NCBI GenBank assembly: GCA_964464735.1
Contig: CAYXKF010000003.1
Location: forward strand, 3,808 to 67,807
Length of the DNA: 64,000 bases
Direction of reading: 5' to 3'
Source of the DNA: an uncultured Candidatus Saccharibacteria bacterium
GTDB lineage: Bacteria > Patescibacteriota > Minisyncoccia > Phycocordibacterales > UBA1006
Shown here one piece after another: positions 8,221 to 55,764 of the stretch. A program made the position numbers and the translations under genes. A model generated the notes under the pieces. That model was not told the origin of the DNA. It made no database searches and was given only the letters and a program-made list of their open reading frames with translations. Every line of letters begins with the position of its first letter. Position 1 is the first letter of the stretch.

Positions 8221-8276
8221 ACTTTCTGTCCAAACTACTGGTGTGGCATATTAATTTCGTGCGGTATAATGCATGC

Positions 8277-8738
8277 ATGGATATTTGTTTTTACCCGGCC
8301 ACACTATTTATGTATGCACTGCGCCACTCTGGCGTGCAAACTTTGTGCACCGACATACTACAGCGTTTTGCATTCGCCGGGCACTATTCATTAGCCACTT
8401 ACCTTGTTTATTTTGCCGTAACGTATGCGCTTGAGCTTCCGGCGTATTGGTTTTTCTTGCGAAACGATTTTTCATTTTTAAAGATCGCGCGCCTAACACT
8501 AGTAGTAAATATCCTGACCCACCCTATTGTTTTTTGGATTTTCCCGCGCATTGCGCTGATGCAGCAATGGAACACCCTTACTTATTTACTTGCTGCCGAA
8601 TTTTTTGCCTTTGCGGTCGAAGCGGCCGCTTTAGTATGGCTGTATAACGTCAAAGCGCCCCAAGCAATTGCCGGAGCGCTTATCGCAAATATCGTTTCGT
8701 GGCAGTTAGGGCTGATGATTCTGCAAAAAATACTTTAG
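8277..8738 (+). CDS. small polytopic membrane protein, hypothetical
   Basis: I trimmed the track ORF 8094..8738 to the in-frame ATG at 8277 (MDICFYPATLF...), because the N-terminal extension is antisense to the helicase gene. About four hydrophobic helices. It is the only plus-strand gene in the first 22 kb. Confidence 0.45.
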   Translation: MDICFYPATLFMYALRHSGVQTLCTDILQRFAFAGHYSLATYLVYFAVTYALELPAYWFFLRNDFSFLKIARLTLVVNILTHPIVFWIFPRIALMQQWNTLTYLLAAEFFAFAVEAAALVWLYNVKAPQAIAGALIANIVSWQLGLMILQKIL

Positions 8739-9058
8739 CTCGTTTGGTTTGCTGTTTTTGCATCAATCAACAACGAATCAATTTCTTTTTTCAGCGTTTC
8801 AATTTCGCCGATAACCATATGTTCAAAATTTGTCAGCCGTGCTTTTAGGTACGCAACTACTTGTTCGGGTTCGGCATTTTGATCGAACATCGTTCCCAGT
8901 TCGGCTTGCGATTCTTCGGGAAGCGTTTCAAGTGCTTGTATCATCACACCCTTAAATACCACTTCACCTACATTTGCCAGCATCTCTTCTTTTTGCGCAT
9001 CAGGAAGATGGTCAAAGTAGAATGCCTGCGCGATTTGTTGATTGATGTCGTTGGTCAT
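8735..9058 (-). CDS. small acidic hypothetical protein (107 aa)
   Basis: Clean ORF lying 28 nt downstream of the 1449-aa gene. Probably the last gene of the giant-protein operon. Confidence 0.5.
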   Translation of the reverse strand: MTNDINQQIAQAFYFDHLPDAQKEEMLANVGEVVFKGVMIQALETLPEESQAELGTMFDQNAEPEQVVAYLKARLTNFEHMVIGEIETLKKEIDSLLIDAKTANQTS

Positions 9059-9086
9059 ACTAATTTATATTATACACGAATAATAA

Positions 9087-12000: not shown

Positions 12001-13436
12001 ACAGTACGCGCGATAGAGCCAGCACCAAAAGCACCCAAGCGTGTCGCAACATTAGTTAGGTTTTTATACCATTCTTCCTTAAACTTTAATTGCGCCGCTT
12101 CGCGTTGTACATCGGCAAACGTTTTAGTACCTGCTTCAAGTTCCTTCGAAAGCGCTTCTACTTTTTCTTGGTAAGTACCGCCAGCACCAAATTCGTCTCC
12201 CACTTTCCATTTGGCCTTGCTGATAGCCAACTTTATAGCTGCCGAACTTGCCATCCCCGCACCGGCACCGATCAAAAGCGCAGGAGTAAATACCGCAGCC
12301 GCAGTACCGGCACCTGCAAGTGCGGCAACAATAGCGGCTTTTTTTGTACGCGGATACTTGTCGATCGCCGCCATAATCTTTCCTTTAATAGTATCGTTTT
12401 TTGTTTCCGAAGCATGTGACGGGGTTCCTTCAAGCATCGCCTTAACATCAAACGTTGTCCTGCGATGAGCAAGCCCGCCAATGACAGACGTTACTGCGCC
12501 ACCCGTAGTACCCATGATGCCGCGAAGCCCAAACCCAAGCGTGCCCCAAATTGCGCCACTACGCACTGCCTTGCCAATACCCCCCGTTCCATTAAACCAC
12601 TTAGTAAAACCGCGCACCACATCGCGCGCACTGTTATCAAGTGTCTTATCCAATTGTTCGTGCATGAACTTGCTTTCGGTTTCAGTCAAAACCAGCGCAC
12701 GGTGGTCAGTATTTGCCAACAACGCAAGAGTTGCCAGTCTTTTCTCGGTAGTCAGGATTTCCTTTTGTAAACGATTGACCTCGTTTTGGTCAACACCCGC
12801 AGGATTGCTCATCGCATCACTTAAGGCTTTTTTTCGCTCAGCCAGAAATTGTGTATAAAAAAGGTTTTTTGAATCCAAGCCCTCGGCAAGGATACGTTCG
12901 ATCTGCCGGTTCTTTAATATTTGATAGTCATTAAGCTTCGCTTCGTAGGCCGCTTTCGCTGCAAGCGCCTCTTGTTCGGTCTTTGGCTGAAATCCAAGGC
13001 CCGACATGATGCTTTTCTTGACTTTGATCCATGTTCCTTTGTTTGCCTGGCGTTCAGCCGCAAGATACGCCATTTTCAGTTGGCGCAATTCAGCCATCTC
13101 GACCGAATCGCCTGGCCGGGGCCGGGCACCATCAAGGGGCTTTGCCAGTTGCTGCTTTATGCGATCACGTTTTTCTTCGTCAGTTTCTTCTTGTATTGGG
13201 TTTAAGAGAGCTTCCTGCTCTTCAGGCTCCTCTTCACCCGCGACAGGCTCGACAACCGGCGATTGTTCCACCTGGGTAGTCGTTTGCTGATTGGTGGTAT
13301 TTAAATTGTTTAACAATTGATCAATTGCACCGGCAGTATTTTGCTGTTGAACCTCAAGACCCGCCACGGTGTTATTCGCAGCCTCTATTTGCTGGTTAAG
13401 ATTATTAAGTGCGCTTAGATCAGGAATTCGGTTCAT
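9087..13436 (-). CDS. giant hypothetical protein (1449 aa) with N-terminal coiled coil, glycine-zipper hydrophobic segments and an internal EG(I/L)IKQE(V/I/A)PQG repeat
   Basis: Long uninterrupted ORF. The N-terminus is Gln/Asn-rich coiled coil. Gly-rich helices (GGIGKAVRSGAIWGTLGFGLRGIMGTTGGAVTSVIGGLA; AAIVAALAGAGTAAAVFTPALLIGAGAGMASSAAI). A Pro/Thr/Ala-rich linker. A 4-fold peptide repeat (GIIKQEVPQG-like). A His-rich patch (HNHANPGTHTHT). Confidence 0.8.
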   Translation of the reverse strand: MNRIPDLSALNNLNQQIEAANNTVAGLEVQQQNTAGAIDQLLNNLNTTNQQTTTQVEQSPVVEPVAGEEEPEEQEALLNPIQEETDEEKRDRIKQQLAKPLDGARPRPGDSVEMAELRQLKMAYLAAERQANKGTWIKVKKSIMSGLGFQPKTEQEALAAKAAYEAKLNDYQILKNRQIERILAEGLDSKNLFYTQFLAERKKALSDAMSNPAGVDQNEVNRLQKEILTTEKRLATLALLANTDHRALVLTETESKFMHEQLDKTLDNSARDVVRGFTKWFNGTGGIGKAVRSGAIWGTLGFGLRGIMGTTGGAVTSVIGGLAHRRTTFDVKAMLEGTPSHASETKNDTIKGKIMAAIDKYPRTKKAAIVAALAGAGTAAAVFTPALLIGAGAGMASSAAIKLAISKAKWKVGDEFGAGGTYQEKVEALSKELEAGTKTFADVQREAAQLKFKEEWYKNLTNVATRLGAFGAGSIARTVLEHTDTGQEILKEQAKNMQPLMKGISDVIHFRNPFTGVEEEVHVPSTDTVAQHGNQTNGGVSAQDSLKAAAGQQSRDTVAAALGQNPSVDTIAMQEPHIDTVATGTPASQANNSQAILDKLFGHQDTATVSHGAHEVKTGVDLGSHPATTEAPATEHPSDANAQPKHDEQAPAADEAKQETPAPSAKESADDTQTSPAPKTPAAAPETTANPDIPIEAKIRPNDGITYAFMRQIEHDPKLQAALGYKPGDDLHSFARHEAVELAKKFGYITPEGEVRTYNVGAAYVLKLDGSGDMTSVEYDAKGGIIETLDGSHTEGGAAGIEKHEYFHRYDGAPSDTHTDAGPNDNEGIIKQEVPQGSSTTTPSDPTTNTGGNQQVPVGGSKVGSGLIEQTVPGAAGGQNGGNTNIDTNAATAPNPKALENVDFPHFTGNARYNEMLGFLSRPNSPALNALNLLLRDRINTDHGFVASYWFHGDRDLGDKFLANLYAGGNKATIDPVKAFVQTIMEYPEGKMSLEQKAVTLELMARAAENKLTPQFLDEFHSKFGFYQPPTMNNYSAPMLANMLGFPLRTDLESFEHYSAPQQAVEEKARATAAAAGAPLQQGSMSQGAAQTHNHANPGTHTHTNGSQTGNQQVRPAGVSQAASTPRIEPSYGTGGTEDTLYWDPKGGSAQNADALTKDQISNFNSVSRDNYSPEEYARLQKMGVLPQTPVPPVNEGLIKQEVPQGTSTVDERLPDGRLIDQVAPVGASNVVNATEGIIKQEIPPGMSTVSATPEVITQTTPIEAAPQDVTEGVANTATDTVQTDATEGIIKQEAPQNLTAAAVENAATNTNPNEVVSAFVTPENLHRGAQEAIERLAAADVFSERTLEHRDILAEKIFEPVLALGRSAENVANFYQVVAGDQQTYVPLRDFMTNDFMGEMPMVEKLQQQIHLMEQEVYGVSIMAYPENFSVHQWVESLVNKIAEKRSQ

Positions 13437-13502
13437 ATAATTAGGCAGTTACATTGTAATACAAAGCGGTTAATAAGCAATTTTATGGGCTTATCTTGGC
13501 AC

Positions 13503-16500
13503 CTATTTTTCAATAAGCTTAGCACCAATACCCTTAAGGTAGGTGTTAATATTATCGGTATTTTTCGAATAATTTTTTGTAATCTTAAGCAAGTCGCCAA
13601 CTTCTTCGACAATACCCGCTTTTTCCAATTGGGTGACAATTGCATCACGACGAGGAATAGGAAGACCAAGTTCAATTCCTAATTTTGTAATATCGATTCC
13701 CTTACTATTAGCAGCAAGAATTTTTTTAACCACATCGGTAATTTTTTCATCAACAGCTTCTTTGTTTTCAAGAGGCAACCCAAGTGCCTTAAGTTCGTTA
13801 TCGAATAGTGCATTGATCGAAGCTTTGGCCAAATCCATTGATTTCGAAATAGTGGTATATTCTTTGCCCTTATTATCTTTTGTGATAGCAATATATTTTC
13901 CGTCTTTTAAATTAATACTATTTAAAGCATCGGCACGGCGCTTTTCAATATCAGCTTTTTTCGCTTCAAGGTCGTCAGCAGTTTCTTCTTTTTTTCCATC
14001 AACCAAAGCAAGTTCAGTATCGATAATTTGTTCGATTTTTTCCAATTTATCTTGATTACCCAAAAGCCAGTGAGAAATCATACTTTCGAGCCGAACCGTT
14101 ACTCCACGGTCAGCATAGGTATACTTGCTTGAAAGTAGTTCTTCCACCTTGCCTAGACCACCAACTTTTTCAGCAAGCAGCACGATCTTATCAACTAAAA
14201 CAGACGTAAGAATCTCAAGAGCTCTTTTATCTTTATTGTACAAAGCCTGAACTTTCGGCAATTCTTTTTTTGCATTCTCGACAGCCTGATCCCCTAGCGT
14301 GGCGTTACTAATCCACGGCCCGCCAAGATGCTGATAGGTTCCCGAATCAGCATATGATCCATCGGGATTTAGCCGGATAAAGATATTAGTATCAGGTACA
14401 AGATATTCTCTTTTCTCTAAAATCTTTTTGATCATTTCAATCGTCTTTACTACTGCCTCGGGCCTTGGTCGTTCTTTGATATCAGCATCTTGCGTCTCGA
14501 TATCGTCCACTGGATCATCCGCATCGATTCCCCGTCGTTCTTCTTTCGATTGTTTTGAACCAGCCCCATCTCCTAAAAACTTGACTGCAACCGGTTTTAT
14601 TACTTGCCATACACCATTTACTAGTTGTGCTTCGCCGTAAGCAACTAATTGAATCTTTTTCGTATCGCTTGTTGGTTTATTGAGAAGCATAACGCTTGGA
14701 TTATTAAGATAGTATTCCCAATTGCCGTCAGTAAAGACATATTTTTGAACGCTTGGATCTTTTGAGATTCCCAAAAACGCCTTATGATCCTCTTTTTGGA
14801 CTAACAATTCAAAAATCTGTTCGCCGTTTGAGGCTTTGCGTGCATCAATCGAATTAAATCCTCCATTGACCGGGATTTTACAATACAATTTATGAGTAAA
14901 TGGCGGCTCGACGGGTTCAATTGTTTCTTTTTTCTCATCAACTGTCGGCGCATCGCCCCAATACATCTCGCCGCCACTTTCAAGTACTAATTTTCCATTC
15001 TCAGTTTTATAAATAATCGGTTTTGTAACGGTAATTTTAGACGGGCACTCTTTTGGTTGTGCATTTAATATCTTAAAAACATTATACAAAATGAGTTCAG
15101 GTGAAGCATACGCGGCGGCAAGGGCACGCTTGGTATTTGCGAAGGTCATTTCCATTCGACCATTTGGCAACGCTTTTCCATGATAAAATATAGAGGATTC
15201 ATCTTCTGGAGACATTTGTGCTACAGAGATAGGAAAACTTCCATCGGCATTAGGAATTGGAAAATACCAGATTTTGCCTTTGGTTTCTTTTTGTTCGGGA
15301 CTATTGGCATTAAGACCCTGCAAAGCGTCGTCAAGGCGCTTATCATATGCAAGGTAATTATCAATCTTGATTTCAAAAGGCAAAGTTTGGGCTTCGGCAA
15401 CATATTGTTCCTTAATGCCCTTAAGTTTTACATCAAGATCATTATATTCAATACCTGACGACAAGTAGTCCTTAAATTCTTGACCATAGCGATGTCCTGA
15501 AATCCCTCGTTCGCGCACAGCTTCATTCAGTGAATCATAAAATCGTTTATTAAAATCTTGTTCAATGATTGTTTTCCCACGGTTCTTTAATTTATGCTCA
15601 AAAGACTGTGCTATCTCATGCATTTGCACAAATGCAACTTTATCCATATCAGGCAACTTTTGCCCTAATATATTTTTTACATTTTCAAATTTCCTCGCAA
15701 CATCATTATATGTCCCGGTTAATTCATTTTCAGCATATAATTTTGTCCATTGAGCAGCCACGTCCGACAACTGTGCGATTTGAGTTCCTTTATAAGTAAT
15801 TGCCGTAGGTGTTACCTCATAGTCACTTGTTCCAACCTTTCCTAACGGAAGGTCCAGTGCATATTCCAATGTTTCTGTTTTCGCCTTTTTCTCGAAACGA
15901 TAATCAATAACCCCGCCCATTCCTTTTTCGGCTTTTAGTTCGTAACCAGCAAGTTCGCTCCAGGTTGCTAAGTCGTCGGCAACTTGTTTGTCAGTGGTCG
16001 TAAACGAACCGTTTTTAATTTGCTGAATAAACGACTTACGCACTGCTTCGCTGTATTTAGGATGCGCCTGTTTTTCAACAAGCTGTAATTGGCCAAACGC
16101 GTAAGCCTTAAATAGTTCGTCTTTTGGATACGTCTTAATAACACCCGATGCATTTTTTAGTTCATAACCCCTAGCTCCCGACGAAGCTAACGCGTAAGTG
16201 TCGCCATCGACAACAAAATCGTGCGTAGAAATTGCGTTTAAAATATATGTCTTAATACTTGCAGCTACTTTTTTATACTCCTCTTCGCGCGCATCATTAA
16301 GATCCTTAAGTTGCTGTTTGGCGTTTTGCAATTTTTCGGCACCTTCTTGCTTAACACGCTGTAGCGTCGCAACAAGTTCGGCGTTTGTTTTTGGAAGACT
16401 GTCGGCAGCAAGTCCAAGCGCAGCAAGCTGCTCGTTTGTCATGCCCTTAAACATGTCGGCGATTTTTTGCGCTTCGGCATCAATGGTATTGGCATCAAGG

Positions 16501-25906: not shown

Positions 25907-25969
25907 TGCCGAAAGTATAGCGCATTTTTATAAAAACAAAAAGATATGGTGCGCGCGATGCAAGTATCG

Positions 25970-25975
25970 TATAAT
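25970..25975 (+). promoter_or_regulatory. -10 hexamer TATAAT 7 nt upstream of ATG 25983 (leaderless)
   Basis: Seen directly in the sequence. The divergent comM has TATACT (25919-25914) 7 nt before its ATG at 25906. Confidence 0.5.
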
Positions 25976-25982
25976 GTTGTGC

Positions 25983-26939
25983 ATGAGTGACGAACAAAAA
26001 CCAAAGACTGCGCGCACGATGCAAGATGATATTGCATCAGCCATGAAAACCGGCAGCATCGAGGAGTCACAGAAAATATTTCGCCTTGCCCGCGAAGAAG
26101 AAGTAGAAGAAGCACTGACGCAAGCCGACAAAAAAAATGATCGCTTGTATACAGTGTTAGGAATCATCGTGTTGTGCGTTGCCATACTTGCAGGCGGATA
26201 CGCACTGACGCACCGCAAAAAAAGCGCTACGCCGGCAACATCAACAGTAAATACATTGACCGAATCGTTTTCGTACGACACCAGTATTTCACTTTCACTT
26301 GCAAACTTGCGTACATTTGAAAAAAAAGATGCGTGGAATAAATCGCTTGCAACTGTTGGCACGCGGGGACTAACTAAAATCGTGATTACGCCGACGTCGG
26401 TCCTTCCTGATATTTTTGCCACCAGCGCAATTACTGTGGCACCATTTGCAGGTATTCAAAAAACTGACATCGGCGCACTTACCGACACACAGGACACCCA
26501 ATATCCATTTATCGTCGCGACCATAAGTAGCATCGATGCAGCAAGCGAAGCATTGCTTAACCGCACAAGCGATTTTTCAGAAGGCCTTGCGATCTTTTTT
26601 GGATACGACACTTTAAGCGATAACGACCGGTCAAACATTACCGTTACCCCAACCATATACCAAAATCAGCCGATGAACCGCGTGTCTGCGCGCGTGCGCA
26701 CCAGAGAAGTTGCCACCGAAGCTTCAAGCGGCAGCGCCGAAATGGTTTTGCAATCGTTGGTTGATTCGGTAAACCAAACACCGGATGATATCGACGGCAA
26801 CGGTTCAACCGCAAAAATACAAAACACCTATACCGACCAACTGTTATTCGTATACGCGATCGTACGCCAAAAATATCTTATTGTTGCATCAACTGAAGCT
26901 ACACTGGCAACCGTACTTGCACGCGTAAATCCAAATTAG
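25983..26939 (+). CDS. membrane-anchored hypothetical protein (318 aa)
   Basis: I trimmed the track ORF 25638..26939 to the in-frame ATG at 25983 (MSDEQKPKT...). That ATG lies 7 nt after a perfect TATAAT, and upstream of it the frame is antisense to comM. One TM helix (LYTVLGIIVLCVAILAGGYAL). Confidence 0.6.
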   Translation: MSDEQKPKTARTMQDDIASAMKTGSIEESQKIFRLAREEEVEEALTQADKKNDRLYTVLGIIVLCVAILAGGYALTHRKKSATPATSTVNTLTESFSYDTSISLSLANLRTFEKKDAWNKSLATVGTRGLTKIVITPTSVLPDIFATSAITVAPFAGIQKTDIGALTDTQDTQYPFIVATISSIDAASEALLNRTSDFSEGLAIFFGYDTLSDNDRSNITVTPTIYQNQPMNRVSARVRTREVATEASSGSAEMVLQSLVDSVNQTPDDIDGNGSTAKIQNTYTDQLLFVYAIVRQKYLIVASTEATLATVLARVNPN

Positions 26940-27027
26940 ATCCATTTGTGGCATAATAAAAAATTCATTGCACCTTAGAGTATCTATGGTATACTCGCAG
27001 TCCTTTTAGTAATAATCATTACTGCAT

Positions 27028-28367: not shown

Positions 28368-28377
28368 TAAATGAAAA

Positions 28378-28406
28378 GGCCACCATTATGGTGACCCTTT
28401 ATTTTT
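28378..28406 (+). terminator. intrinsic terminator after the xer recombinase gene
   Basis: GGCCACCAT-ta-ATGGTGACC followed by CTTTATTTTTG. Confidence 0.6.
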
Positions 28407-28419
28407 GCAGCACTGAAGT

Positions 28420-28728
28420 TTAAGCTGCACGGGGAAACTTTTGCATGCCAATCCGCTCGGCTTGTGCCAGCAGTTTATGCTTGAGCTCTTTATCCCCATT
28501 TATACCCCGGGTTGTATTCCTTTCATACCTCGCCTCATCAAGTGGCCCAAGGTCAACCTCAAATATTGGCAGGTTAACTTTTACGTGCCTAAACATATTG
28601 ATGTAGAAATGCATAAAGTGCTCTTGCTGTTTTTCATTACCTGTATATTTGTAATCGTGATACGACAGCCAAATGATAATAAAAAACAAATAGCACACCC
28701 AAAATAAATTTAAAAATACGGAAGACAT
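28420..28728 (-). CDS. hypothetical small membrane protein
   Basis: 102-aa ORF with a hydrophobic N-terminus (VFLNLFWVCYLFFIIIWL). The opposite-strand ORF 28441..28707 is the alternative call. Weak. Confidence 0.3.
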   Translation of the reverse strand: MSSVFLNLFWVCYLFFIIIWLSYHDYKYTGNEKQQEHFMHFYINMFRHVKVNLPIFEVDLGPLDEARYERNTTRGINGDKELKHKLLAQAERIGMQKFPRAA

Positions 28729-28853
28729 ACGCTATAATTTTGATTAGAAAATTGGTTCCAGAATCTTGATTTTATATTACTCCCCGAACCTAATGGATGT
28801 CAAATGATAAAAGGGCCCCTTAACAAGTGGCCCTTTTTAATCCATATAAAAAG

Positions 28854-40718: not shown

Positions 40719-40779
40719 TACACAATATATTTATGAGGTTGTGATATACTAGCCATATTATCGACTAATTGTTTTTTAT

Positions 40780-41610: not shown

Positions 41611-41660
41611 TTTATAGAAATTTTATCTTAGTTTGATAAGGTAGCGTAAATGCACTTACG

Positions 41661-41693
41661 AAAAAGCCTCCGCTTTGCGGGGGCTTTTTTGTT
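41661..41693. terminator. bidirectional terminator between the DUF3298 gene and the HTH-like gene
   Basis: GCCTCCGC-tttg-CGGGGGC followed by TTTTTTG. The reverse strand also gives a T-run. Confidence 0.65.
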
Positions 41694-48453: not shown

Positions 48454-50403
48454 ATGAAGCACGAACATGTGCACCAAAACCCTGATAAGGAATCTGCCGA
48501 TAATTATGCAAACGCACAGCATGCTCTTTTTACGAACATAAAAAACAAAATCGAGGGATACAAAGAGTCGAAGCCACTAAGCGGCACTGAACTGCAAATG
48601 TATATATTTGAACTTTGCAACGCAATCGGTAATAACGAACGTGAATGGACGATGCTATACAATACGATTATCACTATTGCTGACGAACATCCGGTCGAGG
48701 CTGGATACATGCTTGATGCAGTCGGACAAAACGGCCAGATGATTCCTAAAGGCGAGTATGCAAAAGGCATGGCGAAGCTTTTTGCTCGGCCCTGCTCACT
48801 AAACAGCAGCATATATACCCATGCAGTATCGGGCATGAATTACATCAATTCGTTCTACCCTGATTACGATAAAGCATGTGTTGAGCTTCTGGATTTTACC
48901 CATGAAGAGAAATTCGCTGAAACTGCAGGCATGCTGTTATTTTTAAATCGCCTTGCGTCATATTCAAAAGGGTGGAGTTTTTCAAAGCATACTACTAATC
49001 GCCTAGAAACAATGCTTGCCAACACTGTCGCTGACCAAAAAGAAAATTATCTGCTTGGATTATACGCAACGATGCTCCATGATCGCCTTGAGAGAAAAGA
49101 AAAAATACCGTTTAATGCTCCATTCATCCTATTACCAGACACGTACGCATATGTTTTTGACGATGGGCTTTATATCGCACGCCCCGAAGACAAAAAAGCA
49201 ATCGAGGAACTTGCGCAAAAAATAGCCACCCCACATAAAGATTTTGATGATATCCGTCAACAGCATTTTCAGGTGCGGCAAGATGCGCACCAGCTTGAGA
49301 AACTGCTTCACCACACAAAAGTCACACCCGAAGCATTTGGTCTAGGCAACAAGAAGGCTTTTGCAGACAGCACATACTTTAATTATCTAACAATTCTTCA
49401 GCAGCCAAAATTACGCGATGCACTTATGCATGATTTTCACGTCGAACTGCCCGACCTGACCCTTCCCGAACAACTGCAGTTGATAAACTATATTGCATCA
49501 GTTCCAAAATACGAAGTATCCTCGGTAGGTAAAAAACTTGATATTTATGGATTGCCGATGATGCGTTCGTTTTTATCGGTCATTCATGGCGGTAAGGCGG
49601 CTCGTAAATCAATTATGGCTATTACCGATAATTTTTCTGAACCTGATGCAAAAATTCTATTCGAAAAGTACTCTTCGCTTGTATCAATAGCACAAGACAT
49701 CGCAGTTGAGGTGCAAAAAATTATTCCCAATCACGCCAGTATAGATAGCGCAAAGGTGCAAGACGCATTACTGGTTCGCGGAAAAGATCTTATCTTAAAA
49801 GCAGTGGAAACTTTGGATAAGTCAGCGCTTGAGGCACGTCTTGATCGATTTAAAGAAGAATTGATCCTAGCAAGTGAGGTGTATAAAAACCTTGCAGCGG
49901 CTGGCACAAAAATACACCCCGAAGATATCAAAGGAATGACCATTAACATTCTCGGCAAGGACGAGCGCCTAAATGTATCAAGCACCTTGTGGGCAATCAA
50001 TAAGATGAACCGACCATTTATCGAAGAGAGGGACGAGATTGCTTTGCGCGAGATACGATTTGAAAAAACACTGAACGATGAAAACACCGTATGGTACGCC
50101 CTTAAACACAACAGCCAAATAACCGCATTTTGCAGTTTTGAGCCCCAAGCCGATGGCACCTTATTAGTTGAGTCATTAAATGTCGAAACCGAGATCAAGG
50201 GAAACAAACTGGGAGGAGATTTTTTCAAGACCATCATTGAAAAATTAGGACGGGAAAAGACGATTATCGGCTATGTTCATTTTAAAAACCGCACCACCAT
50301 TCCATTTTACGAATCCCTAGGCTTTATTTCAGAACCTATCACCAAAGACGGTAAGCCAGTATATAAAATCACACGGATTACTGATTCTCAGAAACATTCA
50401 TAG
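48454..50403 (+). CDS. hypothetical protein (649 aa) with C-terminal GNAT-like acetyltransferase fold
   Basis: The C-terminal 130 aa (ITAFCSFEPQADGTLLVESLNV...GNKLGGDFFKTIIEKL...FYESLGF) has the GNAT beta-strand and FYxxxGF pattern. The N-terminal 500 aa is unrecognised. Lies 38 nt downstream of the helicase-nuclease. Confidence 0.6.
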   Translation: MKHEHVHQNPDKESADNYANAQHALFTNIKNKIEGYKESKPLSGTELQMYIFELCNAIGNNEREWTMLYNTIITIADEHPVEAGYMLDAVGQNGQMIPKGEYAKGMAKLFARPCSLNSSIYTHAVSGMNYINSFYPDYDKACVELLDFTHEEKFAETAGMLLFLNRLASYSKGWSFSKHTTNRLETMLANTVADQKENYLLGLYATMLHDRLERKEKIPFNAPFILLPDTYAYVFDDGLYIARPEDKKAIEELAQKIATPHKDFDDIRQQHFQVRQDAHQLEKLLHHTKVTPEAFGLGNKKAFADSTYFNYLTILQQPKLRDALMHDFHVELPDLTLPEQLQLINYIASVPKYEVSSVGKKLDIYGLPMMRSFLSVIHGGKAARKSIMAITDNFSEPDAKILFEKYSSLVSIAQDIAVEVQKIIPNHASIDSAKVQDALLVRGKDLILKAVETLDKSALEARLDRFKEELILASEVYKNLAAAGTKIHPEDIKGMTINILGKDERLNVSSTLWAINKMNRPFIEERDEIALREIRFEKTLNDENTVWYALKHNSQITAFCSFEPQADGTLLVESLNVETEIKGNKLGGDFFKTIIEKLGREKTIIGYVHFKNRTTIPFYESLGFISEPITKDGKPVYKITRITDSQKHS

Positions 50404-51151
50404 CATTGCTCCACAGGGCTTCAAAAATTATGCGATGCGTTTCATAAAGCAATGCGTCTTCAACAATGAACGCAATCGAGCGATCATCAAGGGTAAAGTA
50501 GCTGATCTTGTTGTCATAGATCTGAATCACAGTACCGAAATCATTTTCCGCCTTAATGACACGTCGTACAGTAAAATCAGGGTCATCATGTTGGGCCAAA
50601 TTGCGAATATACGGCGTGTCGCGCGAAATGATACGCCGCTTGATACCTGACTTTTTTCGCTTAAGTACTTGCGTCTGATTAAGCTCGTGATACTTTGCAT
50701 TCATGCGTTCATTGTCGGCGATCGTAAGAATTTCAGTAGCCGACGTTAAGCAATCTTCCATTGCCTTTCTGACACCAGCCTCGCCTTCGTAAAATTGCAC
50801 GTTAGGCTTGCCGGCAATCAGATTGTATTTCGAAGCAAAACTTCCCAACGCAAAGGTAAGCGTTTCTTTTGCCAGCGCAACTTCTTTTTCTTTGCGTTCA
50901 ATCAAGTCAATAAGCGCATGAGGATGGGATGGAAAAAACGTTGCCACCGTACCCTTTGCGCCTTTTTTCTGCACCAGTCCCATCGCCTCAAGTTGTTCAA
51001 GTACTTTATAGGTCAACCCGCGCTTTATGCCAACCCATTGCGACAGGGCACTGGCCCGCTGAGGTCCCCTATCTAAAAGTGCTTGGTATATAAGGGCTTG
51101 TTCTTGTGACAACCCTGCTTGGATTAATAGGTTTTCATCGTTTTTCTGCAT
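50378..51151 (-). CDS. TrmB-family transcriptional regulator
   Basis: N-terminal HTH (GLSQEQALIYQALLDRGPQRASALSQWVGIKRGLTYKVLEQLEAMGLV) and a C-terminal TrmB-type effector domain. A TTGTAT-17-TATGAT promoter ends 6 nt before the ATG. Confidence 0.8.
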   Translation of the reverse strand: MQKNDENLLIQAGLSQEQALIYQALLDRGPQRASALSQWVGIKRGLTYKVLEQLEAMGLVQKKGAKGTVATFFPSHPHALIDLIERKEKEVALAKETLTFALGSFASKYNLIAGKPNVQFYEGEAGVRKAMEDCLTSATEILTIADNERMNAKYHELNQTQVLKRKKSGIKRRIISRDTPYIRNLAQHDDPDFTVRRVIKAENDFGTVIQIYDNKISYFTLDDRSIAFIVEDALLYETHRIIFEALWSNAMNVSENQ

Positions 51152-51157
51152 AAAATT

Positions 51158-51186
51158 ATCATAGCATTTTCTTCTTTGTTATACAA
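51158..51186 (-). promoter_or_regulatory. promoter TTGTAT-17-TATGAT of the trmB-like regulator, leaderless
   Basis: The -10 ends 6 nt before the ATG at 51151. Divergent from the 51264 promoter. Confidence 0.55.
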
Positions 51187-51263
51187 CTATGACAATATCT
51201 GTATATAAAAACACTTATACAATAATGTTTCTTGGTACTTATTAGATTTTTGGTCATAGGTTA

Positions 51264-51292
51264 TTGACAATCGGTAAAATAGATGCTATACT
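51264..51292 (+). promoter_or_regulatory. near-consensus sigma70 promoter TTGACA-17-TATACT
   Basis: TTGACAatcggtaaaatagatgcTATACT. The nearest downstream annotated start (51953) is 660 nt away, and a strong terminator hairpin sits at 51576-51616. Confidence 0.6.
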
Positions 51293-51575
51293 ACACTCAA
51301 GCTAAGATTTATAAAAATACTGCACGCGAAGGAACCGAAAGGAGATTGGCGGCAATCATGTGCGCCAGTGCATGCAGTTGGTCATTGAAAATCAATAGTC
51401 GCATAGATCAGAAAGTATTTGTGATCTCTGCAACCCCTATAAGCAAAGCTTGTAGGGAAAAATAAACCTATCGGTTGGTGTATGAGTTCCTTCAGGATGG
51501 CCTGAACCAAGGAGTAAGGACCATGCCAAGCCATAAACGGCTTTCAAGGGAATATGCCTCCGATAGGCCAAAATC

Positions 51576-51616
51576 GTGGCAACGCAAAAAATCGCGTTGC
51601 CACTCTTATTCGAATT
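51576..51616 (+). terminator. intrinsic terminator-like hairpin (10-bp perfect stem GTGGCAACGC/GCGTTGCCAC) followed by a U-rich tract
   Basis: Stem at 51576-51585 and 51594-51603 with loop aaaaaatc, followed by tcttattcgaatt. Lies about 310 nt downstream of the 51264 promoter. Confidence 0.6.
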
Positions 51617-51952
51617 ACAAACGAAAGTTTGCAGTTCGATAGGAGATTTCTATACCTAAAAAGAAATTAGAATAAACCCACGGGGATGGAGTCCGAGTGG
51701 AATTTGGCAGGGTTTTAAGAAACCCTTGCTATTGTGGTAGTGCGCAACCACACGATTGTCGGGGTCGTTAAACCGCTCTATGTTTGTAAACAGAAAAATT
51801 ACATGGTTTTGCCGAAAGCAAGCGGATGACGCAGCTTAAGGACGCTATACGTAGCGGAAATCACGAAATACCCGCTGGTGGGTAAAGTAGAGGCTATCCA
51901 ATTCAGACGGTTTGTTAGTTTTCCGTAAAAACTAATATTTTTTCTTTCACCA

Positions 51953-52945
51953 ATGCACGGTTTGCTTCCGTGGGTAAAGAAGAGCGAAAAAATGGAAGAA
52001 GTTAAAGAAGTTTACGAAGTACCCTACAAGTCTGAAGGATACTGCTCAAACAACGGCAACGTGAGCAACAGGAGCTCACGAAGTTACATTCCTATTGCCC
52101 GAATGGGTAATGGGGACAGGTGGTTCATGCCTCTAGAAGAGGCGTGTAGCTATTCAGGCGCAAACGGCTGGAACCGAAAAAACTTCGGTGAACCGGCAAA
52201 GTTTATTCCTCAAATAAAAGTTGTTGAGGAAAAAATATACGGCACGTGCGGTGCCGATTATAAAACTTCGGGAGTAAGAAAAGCGCAAGAACAAGCGCTT
52301 TTTACCCAATCTAACCAAGAGCAGTTTTGGGGGAGCACAAAAACTTGGCTCAGGTGGACAGGAGAGCCGTTGTCAAATGAAATTGCAGAAATGTTCGACG
52401 GGCTTTACACCCCCGCAACGGGTGGAAACCCCGTTCACGAAATACAATTAGGGTGTTCCGAATGGGACACCAATTCATGGTCTACAGGGTGGACGTGTTC
52501 TGCCCTTAAGTGTTTTTGCCAAGAGAAGAATTGGACCGAGTGGAGCATGTCCACATGGTTCAAGGTATTCGAATTGGCCCACAAAGCCAATTTCGGCGAG
52601 TTCCTAAAGACCAAAATTGTTGCAAGCGAAAGCTATCGCAACAGTTTGGGGCAAAATCGTCCGACCACGTACTGGTCACACGATGAAAAGTTTTGGGCAA
52701 TCTGGTCGCATTGCGACCACGATCCAGATACTTTTAAAAAGTTCTGGAAAAATAGGCCGACAAACTCGGCCTTGGCTCAAATCTACACTGCCGCCGTAGC
52801 CAAGCATGGCTATAAAGCGGTAAAAAATGCGCTACTGAAGCGCAAAAAATTGAAAGAAATACTGAACCTGCCATCTGCATGGATGGCAGTTATACACAAA
52901 CAAGCGGAATTTATTCCTCTTGAAATGATAGGCATTGCTGCCTAA
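51953..52945 (+). CDS. Trp-rich, Cys-containing hypothetical protein (330 aa)
   Basis: About 18 Trp and about 10 Cys with no signal peptide and no recognisable domain. Preceded by about 660 nt of structured non-coding sequence and followed by a strong hairpin terminator. Confidence 0.55.
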   Translation: MHGLLPWVKKSEKMEEVKEVYEVPYKSEGYCSNNGNVSNRSSRSYIPIARMGNGDRWFMPLEEACSYSGANGWNRKNFGEPAKFIPQIKVVEEKIYGTCGADYKTSGVRKAQEQALFTQSNQEQFWGSTKTWLRWTGEPLSNEIAEMFDGLYTPATGGNPVHEIQLGCSEWDTNSWSTGWTCSALKCFCQEKNWTEWSMSTWFKVFELAHKANFGEFLKTKIVASESYRNSLGQNRPTTYWSHDEKFWAIWSHCDHDPDTFKKFWKNRPTNSALAQIYTAAVAKHGYKAVKNALLKRKKLKEILNLPSAWMAVIHKQAEFIPLEMIGIAA

Positions 52946-53172
52946 TCATAAACCAGCCTTTTGATGGCAAGAGGGGACAACTGGTGATTGCCATTACTGC
53001 ATGAATTTTAGGCAGTAACTACAACCAAATAAAAAAACAACGGAGGAGCTCAAAGAGTTCCTCCACTTTATTCGGTTTATCATTGGCCTGCCATGAGCAA
53101 AGTCGAATGGTAAATCGATAGGGAACGCTGAAAACCTAGAAACGAGTAAGCAAAAAATTAAATAAAAAAAGG

Positions 53173-53655
53173 ATGGCTAAGAATTATCCTGTAAAAATTG
53201 CCCGCGTAGGCAATGAACTCTGGGTACAATACGAGGTACTTGGAGAAAATCTGCCCGGTAAGGCGGATTTTCATTATCTTTTTATCACAGAAGGAGGCAA
53301 CAATCCTTCGTGGAAAAAAGTCCGCGATGCCGACGCGGAAGATCGGAAAAGGATTAAAAACTTGCATTTCATCGAAGGTGAAATGCCCAGAGAGGCACTG
53401 GTGTCTTTTTGGAAGGAAGGAATGGACAGATTTGTCTCTCAAAGAGACGAGCATTGTCCAAAGACTCACCAGTTTTTGGGTGAGTTAAGTTACGACTCTC
53501 TTAAAGACAAATTCGTCGTAGAAGTCTACGGCGAAACATGGTTCGGCTACCCCGGAGCAACGGGCGCCGAATATTACGAAGATCACCAAACTCGTAAAGA
53601 AGAGTTTGATGATCTGCCAGACGTGCTGTTGCACGGTCGGTGGGACTGGCGATAA
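53173..53655 (+). CDS. hypothetical protein (160 aa)
   Basis: Clean ORF with an AAAGGA-like Shine-Dalgarno immediately upstream. No homology recognised. Followed by about 430 nt of non-coding sequence. Confidence 0.5.
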   Translation: MAKNYPVKIARVGNELWVQYEVLGENLPGKADFHYLFITEGGNNPSWKKVRDADAEDRKRIKNLHFIEGEMPREALVSFWKEGMDRFVSQRDEHCPKTHQFLGELSYDSLKDKFVVEVYGETWFGYPGATGAEYYEDHQTRKEEFDDLPDVLLHGRWDWR

Positions 53656-54091
53656 TAAATCCTATCCTTGGGATATCAAGGTTGCCAAAGTCGGTAATGG
53701 GACTGCGGCTTAAAAATACAAGGAAGTTCGCGTAGGCGAATGAGCTGTCATTACATGCAGAGAAGAAACTTCTCGGGTTATCTTCTGCATCAACAACGAA
53801 GGACTTGCTGTCCCGAGACACGTCATAATCCAGGCAAGCTGTTGTCTTATAGCTTCGACGACCTGGTACGTACTGCGGTTATATCGGCTTAGCATGAAAA
53901 TGCTAACAACCGGTACAGGCACAGAGAAAAGTGAAGAAAAAATTGAATATTGTGAGTAAATGACTTTGTGCCAAGGTAAAATAACCTTGGCCTCTGTTCT
54001 TTCAGTATCACGCTGTGATAAAGAAAGTGATCAGAGAATTACACAATACGGCACCTACAAAAAACAAAAGCGCACTGATATACTTATGTTT

Positions 54092-54481
54092 ATGGAACTA
54101 TCCGATAAGCAATGGAAAGAAAGACTGACCGATGAACAATATCGCGTGCTTCGCGAAAAGGGAACCGAAGCGCCTTTTAAGGGCGAATATGTCGATTTTA
54201 ACGAAAAGGGGGACTACGTATGTGCCGGCTGCGGTAACATATTATTTACATCCGACCATAAATTCGATTCACATTGCGGGTGGCCAAGTTTTGACGACAT
54301 TGCAAATAACGATGCGATCATGACCGCGCAAGACATGTCGCATAACATGAACCGCACCGAAGTTATTTGTAAGCAATGCGGCGGGCACTTGGGCCATGTT
54401 TTTCCGGACGGACCAAAAGAAACAACCGGCATAAGGTATTGCATCAATTCGGTCGCATTAAACTTTAAGAAAAAAGAATAA
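54092..54481 (+). CDS. msrB: peptide-methionine (R)-S-oxide reductase MsrB
   Basis: CxxC...CGWPSF...HLGHVF SelR signature. The start was set to MELSDKQW (54092), 7 nt after a -10 TATACT. The upstream part of track ORF 53960 is not MsrB-like. Confidence 0.9.
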   Translation: MELSDKQWKERLTDEQYRVLREKGTEAPFKGEYVDFNEKGDYVCAGCGNILFTSDHKFDSHCGWPSFDDIANNDAIMTAQDMSHNMNRTEVICKQCGGHLGHVFPDGPKETTGIRYCINSVALNFKKKE

Positions 54482-54482
54482 T

Positions 54483-54998
54483 ATGCAAAAGACGATCATA
54501 TTTGGTGGCGGATGTTTTTGGTGTACCGAAGCATTATTTCAGCGCGTAACAGGAGTAACAAAAGTTGTGTCAGGATATGCCGGAGGACATGACAATAACC
54601 CTAACTACCAATCAGTTTGTGGTGGAACAACCGGCCATGCCGAAGTGATCGAAGTAACGTATGATCCGGCAATTATTTCGCTAAGCGATTTATGTGCAAT
54701 CTTTTTTGCGACCCACAACCCAACCACTAAAGACCAACAAGGTGCCGACAAGGGTTCGCAGTACCGATCAATTATTTTGTATACCGACGACGCCGAAAAA
54801 CCGGTTATCGAAGAGGCGATTAACGGCGCGCAAAAAGATCAAAAGAATCCAATCTTAACCGAAGTAGCAAAACTAGAGAAATTTTATCCAGCCGAAGATT
54901 ATCATCAAAATTATTACAACAACAACCCCGACCAGCCGTATTGCGCTGTCCTTATTGCGCCAAAATTAGAGAAATTTCTTAAGTCTAAAAATATATAG
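54483..54998 (+). CDS. msrA: peptide-methionine (S)-S-oxide reductase MsrA
   Basis: The GGGCFWC active-site motif at the N-terminus is the PMSR family signature. The start is 1 nt after the msrB stop. Confidence 0.92.
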   Translation: MQKTIIFGGGCFWCTEALFQRVTGVTKVVSGYAGGHDNNPNYQSVCGGTTGHAEVIEVTYDPAIISLSDLCAIFFATHNPTTKDQQGADKGSQYRSIILYTDDAEKPVIEEAINGAQKDQKNPILTEVAKLEKFYPAEDYHQNYYNNNPDQPYCAVLIAPKLEKFLKSKNI

Positions 54999-55070
54999 TA
55001 CTATTTGACATTTCGACTAATTTTGGGATCATGCTTATAAGCACCTTTGCCCAAAACTTAAATCCAGCTT

Positions 55071-55376
55071 ATGGCAGCAAATCAAATAACTGGCGTTGTT
55101 CGAAATATAACCCTTAGAATATTAGAACAGGCACGCTTAGAAAAGAAACAGCTTTCGGTAGTACTTGTTGGCGAAGACAATACCATTTTCATGTCTCCCG
55201 AACTGACAGACATACAAAAATCGGATGGTACCACTTATATAGCAGATATAGAAGGAAAAGGAAGTGTTGCAATAGTGCAAAGAGACGAAAATATCCTAAA
55301 CTTTACCTTTTACGGCTATGACCGGCTTGAAGAAACACCTAAGGACGATTTAGAACATCAAGCAACAAGAGTTTAA
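55071..55376 (+). CDS. hypothetical protein (101 aa)
   Basis: Clean ORF followed by two tandem bidirectional terminators. Confidence 0.4.
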   Translation: MAANQITGVVRNITLRILEQARLEKKQLSVVLVGEDNTIFMSPELTDIQKSDGTTYIADIEGKGSVAIVQRDENILNFTFYGYDRLEETPKDDLEHQATRV

Positions 55377-55399
55377 ATTCTTATTGCAACTTTATAAAA

Positions 55400-55472
55400 A
55401 ACGCCCTTTATAGGGCGCTTTTTAGTACAAAGAAAAAACCCTCCGTACGCGTTCGGAAGGCTTTTTCTTTTT
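55400..55472. terminator. two tandem bidirectional terminators between the 101-aa gene and HU
   Basis: CGCCC-tttata-GGGCG followed by CTTTTT, and CCTCCG-tacgcgtt-CGGAAGG followed by CTTTTTCTTTTT. Both give T-runs on the reverse strand. Confidence 0.65.
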
Positions 55473-55482
55473 AGATAACTAA

Positions 55483-55764
55483 TTACTTAGTCTTAGCCAC
55501 AGCGTCTTTCAAAACTTTTGAAGGACGGAACTTAGGCTTTTTGCTGGCAGGAACCGCTACCGGTTCGCCAGTCTTAGGGTTTCGGGCAGTTCGCGCTGCG
55601 CGCTTTGCTACCAAAAACTTGCCGAATCCTGCAATGTCTACCGTGTCGCCTTTCAGCATAGCGGTAGTCATTGATTCGAAGATTTGTTCCACAAGAGTTT
55701 GTGATTGGATTTTAGTTCCTCCAATCGTCTCGTGAATCATTTTTGCAATGTCAGTTTTCTTCAT
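55483..55764 (-). CDS. hup: HU/IHF-family nucleoid-associated DNA-binding protein
   Basis: GFGKF...R.ARNP.TGE beta-arm motif (DIAGFGKFLVAKRAARTARNPKTGEPV). Confidence 0.9.
   Translation of the reverse strand: MKKTDIAKMIHETIGGTKIQSQTLVEQIFESMTTAMLKGDTVDIAGFGKFLVAKRAARTARNPKTGEPVAVPASKKPKFRPSKVLKDAVAKTK

Follow-up and report, generated by a model that had tools for sequence, protein, structure and literature searches.

Layout of the Island

The island described here lies between the genes of a TrmB-family regulator and of MsrB, in a stretch of 64,000 nucleotides (nt) from an uncultured Candidatus Saccharibacteria bacterium; this whole stretch is referred to below as the window. Its contig recurs in the sequencing run SRR11567520. 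Two orphan open reading frames (ORFs) occupy the plus strand of the island: W330 (51953-52945, with an alternative start at 51992), which encodes a tryptophan-rich protein of 330 amino acids (aa), and O160 (53173-53655), which encodes an acidic protein of 160 aa. They are separated from each other and from their neighbors by three spacers of 801, 227 and ~430 nt, and the island is best read as three plus-strand units, not as one system.

Patescibacteria genomes are small and densely packed. From the trmB start at 51151 to the msrB start (54086 or 54092), 1,476 of ~2,935 nt (50%) are coding, in line with the 1.5 of 2.9 kb estimated in a first-pass annotation of this DNA, while coding density over the whole window is ~85% and the median intergenic gap 88 nt by a crude gene call. 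The 801-nt gap upstream of W330 ranks fourth by size among the 50 gaps of the window. Terminator-like sites are enriched in the region 50300-55500 (19 vs. 6.2 ± 3.0 in shuffled sequences). The hairpins and terminators listed in the first-pass annotation were all recovered in place, and the three that were tested fold far better than shuffles. Its description of the spacers as structured is accurate to different degrees: folding is strong in 51296-51615 (z = -6.0), moderate in 53656-54085 (z = -3.4) and only marginal in 51616-51955 (z = -2.0). No hidden gene remnants (Pfam), repeat families, CRISPR arrays or TIGR arrays were detected in the spacers.

The W330 Protein and Its Family

W330 contains 17 Trp (5.2%) and 8 Cys (2.4%), compared with 0.8% and 0.9%, respectively, in the long ORFs of the window; the richness in both residues noted earlier thus stands, with the counts corrected from about 18 and 10. 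TWLRW, NWTEW and KFWAIW, the motifs first described, all occur in it. The protein has no hydrophobic segment (maximum Kyte-Doolittle value of 0.97 in a 19-residue window), no membrane segment and, as stated in the first-pass annotation, no signal peptide.

The coding score of W330 is +0.105 bits per codon and is positive in its own frame only. Scores were referred to 28 training genes, whose 140 off-frame values reach a maximum of -0.062; the in-frame scores of both W330 and O160 exceed every one of these values. The highest off-frame score of all, -0.035, belongs to frame -3 of a short ORF outside the training set (51475-51642).

In a word-indexed search of 5.8 billion clusters, W330 and O160 matched themselves alone. 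An exhaustive HMMER search of 1.84 billion representatives recovered two relatives of W330 and no others: P0003 (325 aa, E = 4e-40, 34% identity over residues 22-313 of W330) and P0004 (316 aa, E = 2e-10, with the proteins 30% identical). The homology is full-length, and the three proteins have 38 invariant alignment columns (alignment A2), including the motifs GY..NG.V, SYSG.NG, Q.WG, WDTN and L..RK.L. D172 is the sole invariant acidic residue, and the C-terminal segment, which carries L..RK.L, is basic and conserved. All three members are aromatic-rich (12-13%) and devoid of membrane segments. The family is extremely rare, with these three members among about 15 billion proteins. The ATG at 51992 (Met14) agrees with the N-termini of the homologues and may be the true start of W330. 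A profile search for further homologues yielded nothing beyond P0004, and a metagenome collection scanned with the family profile gave no match.

With regard to known families, searches of W330 and O160 against Pfam, NCBIfam, PHROGs, PADLOC and PDB sequences revealed no known family or fold, which for W330 bears out the earlier statement that it has no recognizable fold; the W330 homologues likewise yielded nothing usable in the family searches, and a PDB sequence search with the W330-family profile was also empty. Single-sequence AlphaFold2 models were poor (predicted local distance difference test scores of 35.4 for W330 and 44.7 for O160), and Foldseek comparison of these models with PDB returned noise only (E ≥ 0.18).

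Given the invariant motifs common to the homologues and a coding score above zero in its own frame alone, W330 can be taken as a real gene, the member of a very small, fast-evolving family of soluble, aromatic-rich proteins. It is followed by a terminator at 53042-53064 (plus strand; GGAGGAGCTC-AAA-GAGTTCCTCC, -17.2 kcal/mol, z = -5.4), which corresponds to the one placed at about 53040-53075 in the first-pass annotation.

P0004 is encoded on a 423-kb metagenomic contig, L023 (a further contig, L024, is from the same organism). In both contigs, its gene and a TrmB gene point away from each other at a distance of 715 nt, and in L023 it lies behind a folded leader. Downstream are an unrelated 324-aa ORF, a 598-aa protein similar to the 649-aa GNAT-fusion protein of the window (E = 2e-11) and a second TrmB, which is 34% identical to the window TrmB. 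The P0004 gene has its own strong terminator 80 nt past the stop codon. The P0003 gene, on a 3.2-kb contig (JGI 3300075153), is preceded by 410 nt of gene-free DNA, or by 733 nt if a called 51-aa ORF is spurious. Since no O160 counterpart adjoins either P0003 or P0004, the conserved unit consists of a gene of the W330 family with a long leader before it and a terminator after it, beside TrmB and a GNAT-fusion protein, and not of a W330-O160 pair. Co-occurrence with trmB-like regulators, a check proposed with the first-pass annotation, was found for W330, in the single other genome whose DNA was read (L023), and failed for O160. The related idea of the two ORFs as one system was not borne out: O160 is unmatched at both homologue loci, and each W330-family gene that was read is monocistronic with its own terminator. 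The same annotation had held that absence from related genomes would speak against a dedicated system, and this applies by half, W330 and O160 being missing from 20 of 20 related TrmB loci. It follows from the same absence that TrmB does not need W330 or O160.

The GNAT-Fusion/TrmB Pair and the Divergent Promoter

The left border of the island is formed by a convergent gene pair. The GNAT-fusion protein (649 aa; 48454-50403, plus strand) has a C-terminal GNAT domain (Pfam Acetyltransf_1, 24.6 bits), and the winged-helix regulator (257 aa; 50378-51151, minus strand) matches the TrmB family (PF01978) over residues 12-66 with 42.5 bits against a cut-off of 25.6. Its C-terminal 190 residues (70-257) have no match in Pfam, NCBIfam or PDB and contain no recognizable sugar-binding effector domain; against the TrmBL1 model, the protein scores 17.5 bits, the cut-off being 650. 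TrmB orthologues with 32-60% identity were found in 20 Patescibacteria contigs, and the closest ones come from contigs labelled Paceibacteria, Taylorbacteria, Nomurabacteria, Magasanikbacteria and Saccharibacteria. The convergent, slightly overlapping arrangement of the pair recurs in nine related loci (L002, L004, L006, L007 and L009-L013), and L023 has two such pairs in tandem (12477-14997 and 7356-9285). The GNAT-fusion proteins are ~600-650 aa in length, and no family match was obtained for their N-terminal 500 residues.

Two elements lie upstream of trmB. A palindrome, TTGTTATACAACTATGACAA, is located at 51176-51195, is unique in the window and has a half-repeat (D1) at 51215-51227. A palindrome of the form TTGTCA-N8-TGACAA occupies the same place upstream of trmB in L002, L003, L004, L005, L007, L010 and others, and this conservation makes it the probable TrmB operator. 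Divergent from trmB is a promoter, TTGACA-17-TGCTATACT (51264-51292, plus strand), which fits 11 of 12 consensus positions plus the extended TG and is the best promoter match in 5.2 kb. A near-identical promoter is found at the same position in L002, L003, L005, L006, L007 and L010, and variants of it in L004, L008, L012, L013 and L014. Taken together, at least ten genomes have both promoter and palindrome ahead of their trmB orthologue, with sequence and placement conserved.

Folded RNAs Behind the Promoter

Behind this promoter lies RNA1, a strongly folded non-coding segment of ~315 nt (51296-51610, plus strand). Its minimum free energy is -112.1 kcal/mol, compared with -79.1 ± 5.5 kcal/mol in shuffles (z = -6.0), and it ends in a terminator at 51576-51603 that comprises a 10-bp hairpin (-19.4 kcal/mol, z = -6.2) followed by UCUUAUU. 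Small ORFs inside RNA1 are not coding-like and have no Pfam match, and RNA1 itself has no match in Rfam. ANGGA motifs are in mild excess (6 vs. 1.9 expected, p = 0.012); a CsrA-sponge-like reading, for which this excess was the only basis, was not retained.

In 11 Paceibacteria-type relatives (L002-L008, L010 and L012-L014), the TrmB-divergent promoter is followed by a conserved RNA of ~330-450 nt with 71-84% nucleotide identity, although the identity of their TrmB proteins to that of the window is no more than 38-60%. It lies on the minus strand of each locus, at L002:9283-9782, L003:9503-9757, L004:9454-9870, L005:9393-9828, L006:1-338, L007:9137-9790, L008:1738-2149, L010:7870-8318, L012:9433-9838, L013:9061-9428 and L014:9377-9828. 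RNAalifold predicted 41 base pairs, including a long-range helix, and 19 of the 41 show compensatory changes. The RNA is further characterized by repeated GAGAGAG motifs and by a hairpin with an invariant CUAACCC loop, and it has no match in Rfam.

This RNA was not found in the window, where nhmmer gave no hit at E ≤ 10. Two covariance models, R1 for its 3' hairpin domain and R2 for its 5' domain, were run on the window with filters off, and the best scores were 12.4 bits (R1) and 13.8 bits (R2), neither of them inside 51296-51615; R1 scores 58-88 bits on true members, and R2 was run on the window only. RNA1 as a diverged member of the same RNA is thereby rejected. RNA1 shares with its counterparts in the relatives their promoter, their placement with respect to trmB, a similar length and variable genes downstream, but it matches neither R1 nor R2 and lacks the GAGAG motifs. 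Since the models of the relatives' RNA fail in the window and the genes downstream of that RNA differ in every genome, the promoter is conserved but is followed in the window by another folded RNA, and the content of the slot behind it varies. Orphan ORFs from the same slot of other genomes were considered as relatives of W330 and O160 and proved to be unrelated.

Several observations concern the slot in these relatives. In L013, ~110-400 nt past the promoter (~9440-9730, minus strand), one hairpin of the RNA contains an insertion of ~290 nt with an ORF for a GIY-YIG nuclease-like protein on its opposite strand (MCVRYNCNMYYVYFLQSGVGKTYIGYTNDLKRRLAQHN...), which has the look of a mobile element inserted in the gene of a structured RNA. 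L008, L012, L013 and L014 have a second conserved non-coding module (AACCGCAATGTTATTCCTCTTC...GTAAGAGGGAT) ~390-580 nt past the promoter, with 82-93% identity. An ORF for a DnaQ-like 3'-5' exonuclease with the motif FDAETNGLWG, 63% identical between the two genomes, is present in L004 (2503-3039, counted on the upstream segment in reverse) and in L008 (1625-2158), and L012 and L013 have another slot ORF of ~320 aa in common. Because slot ORFs are common to L004 and L008 and to L012 and L013, the slot exchanges cargo between genomes.

The Leader of W330

Between RNA1 and W330 lies the leader of the gene (51616-51952, plus strand), in which the segment 51683-51776 contains GGGATGGAGTC, a UAAG-loop hairpin (51705-51731) and TTAAACCGC. 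These blocks are collinear, with similar spacing, with blocks in the P0004 leader of L023; common to both are GGGATG.AGTC, an exact 14-mer GGTTTTAAGAAACC at the center of the UAAG hairpin and TTAAACCGC. The Smith-Waterman score of the two leaders is 30, compared with 20.0 ± 2.3 in shuffles, and 1 of 300 shuffles reached 30. On reading the two sequences, one stem pair of the UAAG hairpin is seen to change from C-G to U-A; as only two sequences are available, no covariation statistics can be given. The frames of small ORFs over the shared block also differ between the two, so the conservation is at the level of nucleotides and not of a peptide, and a conserved small ORF over the block was rejected for this reason.

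The P0004 leader of L023, ~715 nt in length, folds strongly (z = -5.3), extends without a break between the promoter on the TrmB side and the gene, and has no Rfam match. In the window, a weak possible promoter, TTTGCA-17-TATACC, can be read at 51628-51656 (plus strand), its -10 element lacking the final T. A hairpin and a U-rich tract, together with CTTCAC, stand just before the ORF in both leaders. In L023, this hairpin is strong (-22 kcal/mol, z = -5.9) and is followed by UUAUUUUUCUCUU; in the window, it is a weak one at 51913-51938 (plus strand; -6.9 kcal/mol, z = -1.5), followed by UAUUUUUUCUUUC.

Further elements that could pair are found around the W330 start. A pyrimidine tract, TATTTTTTCTTTCACC (51936-51951, plus strand), pairs with GTGGGTAAAGAAGAG at 51970-51984, inside the 5' end of the ORF, and GTGGGTAAAGAAGAG has another copy at 51878-51892, 92 nt upstream (direct repeat D14). 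The repeat, GTGGGTAAAG(T/A)AGAG, is 14/15 identical between the two sites and flanks the tract; as both copies (GTGGGTAAAG) are complementary to it, alternative pairings would be possible. The fold of the start region (51913-51984; -15.7 kcal/mol, z = -1.9) encloses the ATG at 51953 and the purine tract before the ATG at 51992.

A second folded segment was noticed in L023. Divergent from the second TrmB, ~900 nt (15100-15998, plus strand) are strongly folded (z = -6.0) and apparently non-coding, and they end in a hairpin of -27 kcal/mol whose 3' strand is the 14-mer TTTTCTTTCACCAA. The identical 14-mer TTTTCTTTCACCAA is found in the window at 51939-51952, just before an ORF in both cases.

Rfam 15 covariance models were also run on 51152-51952, 52946-53172 and 53656-54085. 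None reached its gathering score, and the matches at E ≤ 10 were noise except for the DUF805b match described in the next section. Elsewhere in the window, Thr/Phe-leader-like matches at 41614-41693 (plus strand; 26-30 bits, E ~0.6-0.9), in the gap after an ORF that ends at 41610, and a match to the Clostridioides difficile small RNA n00280 at 6413-6510 (minus strand; 38.5 bits, E = 0.011), inside a helicase-like ORF, are sub-threshold and probably noise.

O160, msrB and Other Features of the Window

The coding score of O160 is +0.168 bits per codon, positive in its own frame only, and its GC contents at the three codon positions are 0.58, 0.34 and 0.47. No family, PDB, phage or IMG/VR match was found for it. 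In view of the pattern GC1 > GC3 > GC2 and the positive coding score, O160 is probably a gene, and it would then be a genome-specific orphan. The first-pass annotation had given it a Shine-Dalgarno sequence of its own, which is doubtful, since the candidate AAAGG directly abuts the ATG.

In the spacer before O160, 35 nt at 53118-53152 (plus strand), ending 21 nt upstream of the gene, match the DUF805b RNA motif below threshold (30.9 bits vs. a gathering score of 35.6; E = 8.8e-5). This is the sole such hit in the whole window, the motif was not found in L002, L010 or L023, and the match is regarded as unconfirmed. O160 is followed by a folded 3' region (53656-54075, plus strand; z = -3.4 for 53656-54085) without any coding-like ORF, Pfam remnant or repeat. 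This region includes the hairpin TTAGCAT-GAAA-ATGCTAA (53889-53906, plus strand) and a terminator-like hairpin, GCCAAGG-TAAAATAA-CCTTGGC with the tail CTCTGTTCTTTC (53970-53991, plus strand; -13.2 kcal/mol, z = -4.3).

The right border of the island is msrB (from 54086 or 54092 to 54481, plus strand), whose product has a SelR domain (177.8 bits). An extended -10 element, TGATATACT (54076-54084, plus strand), ends 7 nt before the ATG at 54092. It is plausible that the msrB mRNA is leaderless, as the first-pass annotation suggested, or nearly so. The extended -10 sequence TG.TATACT recurs in the window, at 54076-54084 (msrB), at 40742-40750 (before an ORF at 40780) and at 51284-51292 (the TrmB-divergent promoter), and looks like the preferred -10 of the host organism.

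Some features outside the island were also recorded. An inverted repeat with 24-nt arms and no loop gap (TACAAAGAAAAAACCCTCCGTACG / CGTTCGGAAGGCTTTTTCTTTTTA), at 55426-55473 between a 101-aa ORF and the gene for HU, probably serves as a terminator in both directions. By the crude gene call, other long stretches of the window without a confidently coding ORF are 25907-27027 (1121 nt), 812-1650 (839 nt) and 28368-28853 (486 nt).

Interpretation and Alternatives

The reading that we prefer, with a probability of roughly 0.45, is that the island, in a Paceibacteria-like Patescibacteria chromosome, represents an accessory unit specific to its lineage, placed in the variable slot next to a GNAT-fusion/TrmB pair, in which a TrmB-paired promoter drives a long folded RNA that gates W330, while O160 is a separate gene. 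TrmB bound at the palindrome (51176-51195) would set the transcription of both trmB and the divergent RNA. In the first unit, the promoter at 51264-51292 would start the ~315-nt folded non-coding RNA, which would end at the terminator at 51576-51603. In the second, read-through or the weak second promoter would extend transcription into the ~340-nt leader and then into monocistronic W330. The last part of the leader, with its weak hairpin, pyrimidine tract and complementary purine repeat, would cover the start region of W330, so that termination at the first terminator would be joined by occlusion of the start codon and the leader would act as a second checkpoint, W330 being made only under a particular signal. 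The third unit would comprise O160 with its long folded 3' region, followed by the leaderless promoter of msrB. Since two distant genomes keep these genes in each other's company, W330 and the neighboring GNAT-fusion protein probably act jointly, to judge from gene order. The reading draws on the W330 family with its shared motifs and in-frame coding score, the synteny with TrmB and a GNAT-fusion protein in L023 and L024, the conserved promoter and palindrome, the folding of RNA1 and of the L023 leaders, the blocks common to two leaders, the fold around the start codon and the lack of any rival signature. These are observations, whereas TrmB binding, read-through, control by the leader and any biochemical role are inferred from them.

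A number of observations weigh against this reading. As much as 69 nt separate the palindrome from the -35 element of the divergent promoter downstream of it, and TrmB control of that promoter is therefore not obvious. The first terminator has a poor U-tract, the W330 leader folds only marginally, and the hairpin before the ORF in the window is weak. The homology of the leaders consists of short blocks in two sequences, the UAAG hairpin is energetically unstable in L023, and a scan of the metagenome collection with the leader DNA pattern gave two chance hits only, one in a coding region and the other in a high-GC alphaproteobacterial contig. In addition, the codon score of W330 is at the low end of the range of genuine genes, and both W330 and O160 are absent from all of the 20 related TrmB loci.

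The main rival to a leader function would detach the RNA from the gene: RNA1 would be a stand-alone, trans-acting non-coding RNA in the place of the relatives' RNA, and W330 an unrelated, uncoupled neighbor with a weak promoter of its own. The consensus promoter, the strong terminator and the folding of RNA1 (z = -6.0) mark a discrete unit, the same promoter in the 11 relatives drives a covariation-supported RNA (19/41 pairs) with different genes behind it, a candidate second promoter is available at 51628-51656, and the mild enrichment of ANGGA motifs would fit. On the other hand, that second promoter is weak, its -10 lacking the final T; no homologue of RNA1 was found and the covariance models of the relatives do not match it; and the P0004 leader in L023 is uninterrupted from the TrmB-side promoter to the gene. 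We regard this explanation as unlikely, though it deserves to be taken seriously. A closer bond between RNA and protein can also be imagined, in which W330 and its leader form an RNA-protein partnership, either by autoregulatory binding or with the RNA as a cofactor or guide, in a layout analogous to HEARO/omega-RNA-IsrB or retrons. It would be consistent with a long folded RNA immediately upstream of a ~320-330-aa ORF at both loci for which DNA is available, with RNA blocks that are kept though the proteins are only 30% identical, and with the basic, conserved C-terminal segment of W330 (L..RK.L). However, no nuclease, reverse-transcriptase or Nop domain was detected, there is no Rfam match to HEARO or retron RNA and no repeat or array, and D172 is the only invariant acidic residue, which together make such a partnership quite improbable.

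That both genes are absent from all related loci, that their coding scores are low and that half of the DNA is non-coding could also mean that foreign DNA, either acquired recently or in decay, makes up the island and has no organized function, its spacers being the debris of dead genes, its hairpins incidental and O160 a chance or dying ORF; the chance of an ORF of at least 160 codons in 2.9 kb is estimated at roughly 3% at the local base composition. Such decay is improbable, given that the motifs and context of W330 are kept across distant genomes, that the promoter is conserved and that RNA1 folds far better than shuffles, while the spacers contain no Pfam remnants and neither an integrase nor flanking repeats nor a shift in base composition was found. 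The suggestion of the first-pass annotation that a toxin, bacteriocin or phage-defense module may be hidden here fared worst and appears very unlikely. Orphan genes in a variable slot beside a regulator would suit it, as would the GIY-YIG and DnaQ-like genes in the slot of the relatives, and residues 280-311 of W330 show a weak Pfam match to aureocin-like bacteriocins (E = 0.0056). This match, however, is sub-threshold and absent from both homologues, and W330 is a protein of 330 aa without a signal peptide or membrane segment. PADLOC and PHROGs searches were empty, no conserved partner gene was seen, and phage records and IMG/VR contained no relatives.

In a more novel reading, the W330 family and its leader could be the cargo of an undescribed Patescibacteria module, in which a GNAT-fusion/TrmB pair stands beside a promoter that always drives a large structured RNA of a new class (a sensor, a riboswitch-like leader or a protein partner), RNA1 being a second, unrelated RNA that took the place of the conserved Paceibacteria RNA at this promoter. 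This reading is speculative and rather unlikely. That two distant genomes each keep 0.6-0.8 kb of folded non-coding RNA before one gene points to some role for the RNA. If true, the gated accessory unit would offer a way into the regulation of a phylum for which experimental genetics hardly exists, together with a new tiny protein family under tightly gated expression and a conserved promoter that drives large structured RNAs without Rfam 15 matches in many Paceibacteria, one of them well supported by covariation. Should the gated unit prove wrong, the island would be a further patch of hypothetical genes specific to a lineage, of a sort common in such genomes.

Comparison with Known Systems

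Among defense systems, PADLOC-DB 2.0 contained no family at E ≤ 1 for W330, O160 or the GNAT-fusion protein, and only the winged helix-turn-helix (HTH) of TrmB resembled the HTH of CasR/Csa3; PHROGs, phage records and IMG/VR held no relatives of W330 or O160. The closest likeness to a bacteriocin is the match of W330 to the aureocin-like family (PF11758), which reaches 16.9 bits against a cut-off of 25 and is absent from P0003 and P0004, and thus occurs in one of three family members. Like aureocin A53 and lacticin Q, W330 has a basic, amphipathic, Trp-containing helix segment (AKHGYKAV...KRKKLKEIL), whereas those are peptides of ~50 aa and the segment of W330 lies inside a cytoplasmic protein of 330 aa.

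TIGR-Tas are RNA-guided systems of phages and candidate phyla radiation bacteria (PMC12045711). The island resembles them in its Patescibacteria host and in having non-coding DNA beside a compact uncharacterized protein. It differs from them (PMC12045711) in that the three spacers have neither an array of alternating 8-12-nt repeats nor tandem stem-loop units. Pfam gave no Nop hit in W330, P0003, P0004 or O160, the structure models being too poor for a comparison of folds. With regard to HEARO/omega-RNA and retrons, no Rfam match was obtained and Pfam detected no RuvC or reverse-transcriptase domain.

The DUF805b RNA (RF02914) lies upstream of genes for DUF805-domain proteins, as its name implies. 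The 35-nt match before O160 spans the full model and stands directly upstream of an ORF; it differs in being sub-threshold, in having a stem of 4 bp only and in preceding a protein without a DUF805 domain (no Pfam match of O160 at E ≤ 0.1).

Attenuators and riboswitches offer a possible parallel in layout. A long folded leader with a hairpin and a U-rich tract before an ORF is pronounced in L023 and only weak in the window, and sequence blocks are kept between the distant loci of W330 and P0004. Unlike riboswitches, the leader belongs to no Rfam class and, at 560-650 nt, is several times the typical length.

Finally, TrmB-family regulators are exemplified by TrmB/TrmBL1 of Thermococcales and OxsR of Haloferax (PMC9426492). 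The window TrmB resembles family members with a divergent target in its N-terminal winged helix and in a palindrome, the putative operator, that lies in the intergenic region common with a divergent promoter and is kept across orthologues. It departs from them in that its 190 C-terminal residues match no known sensor domain and that its target would be a long non-coding RNA followed by lineage-specific genes, and not a sugar transporter or metabolic operon. The components of the island are unclassified, and their proposed regulatory logic is of a familiar kind.

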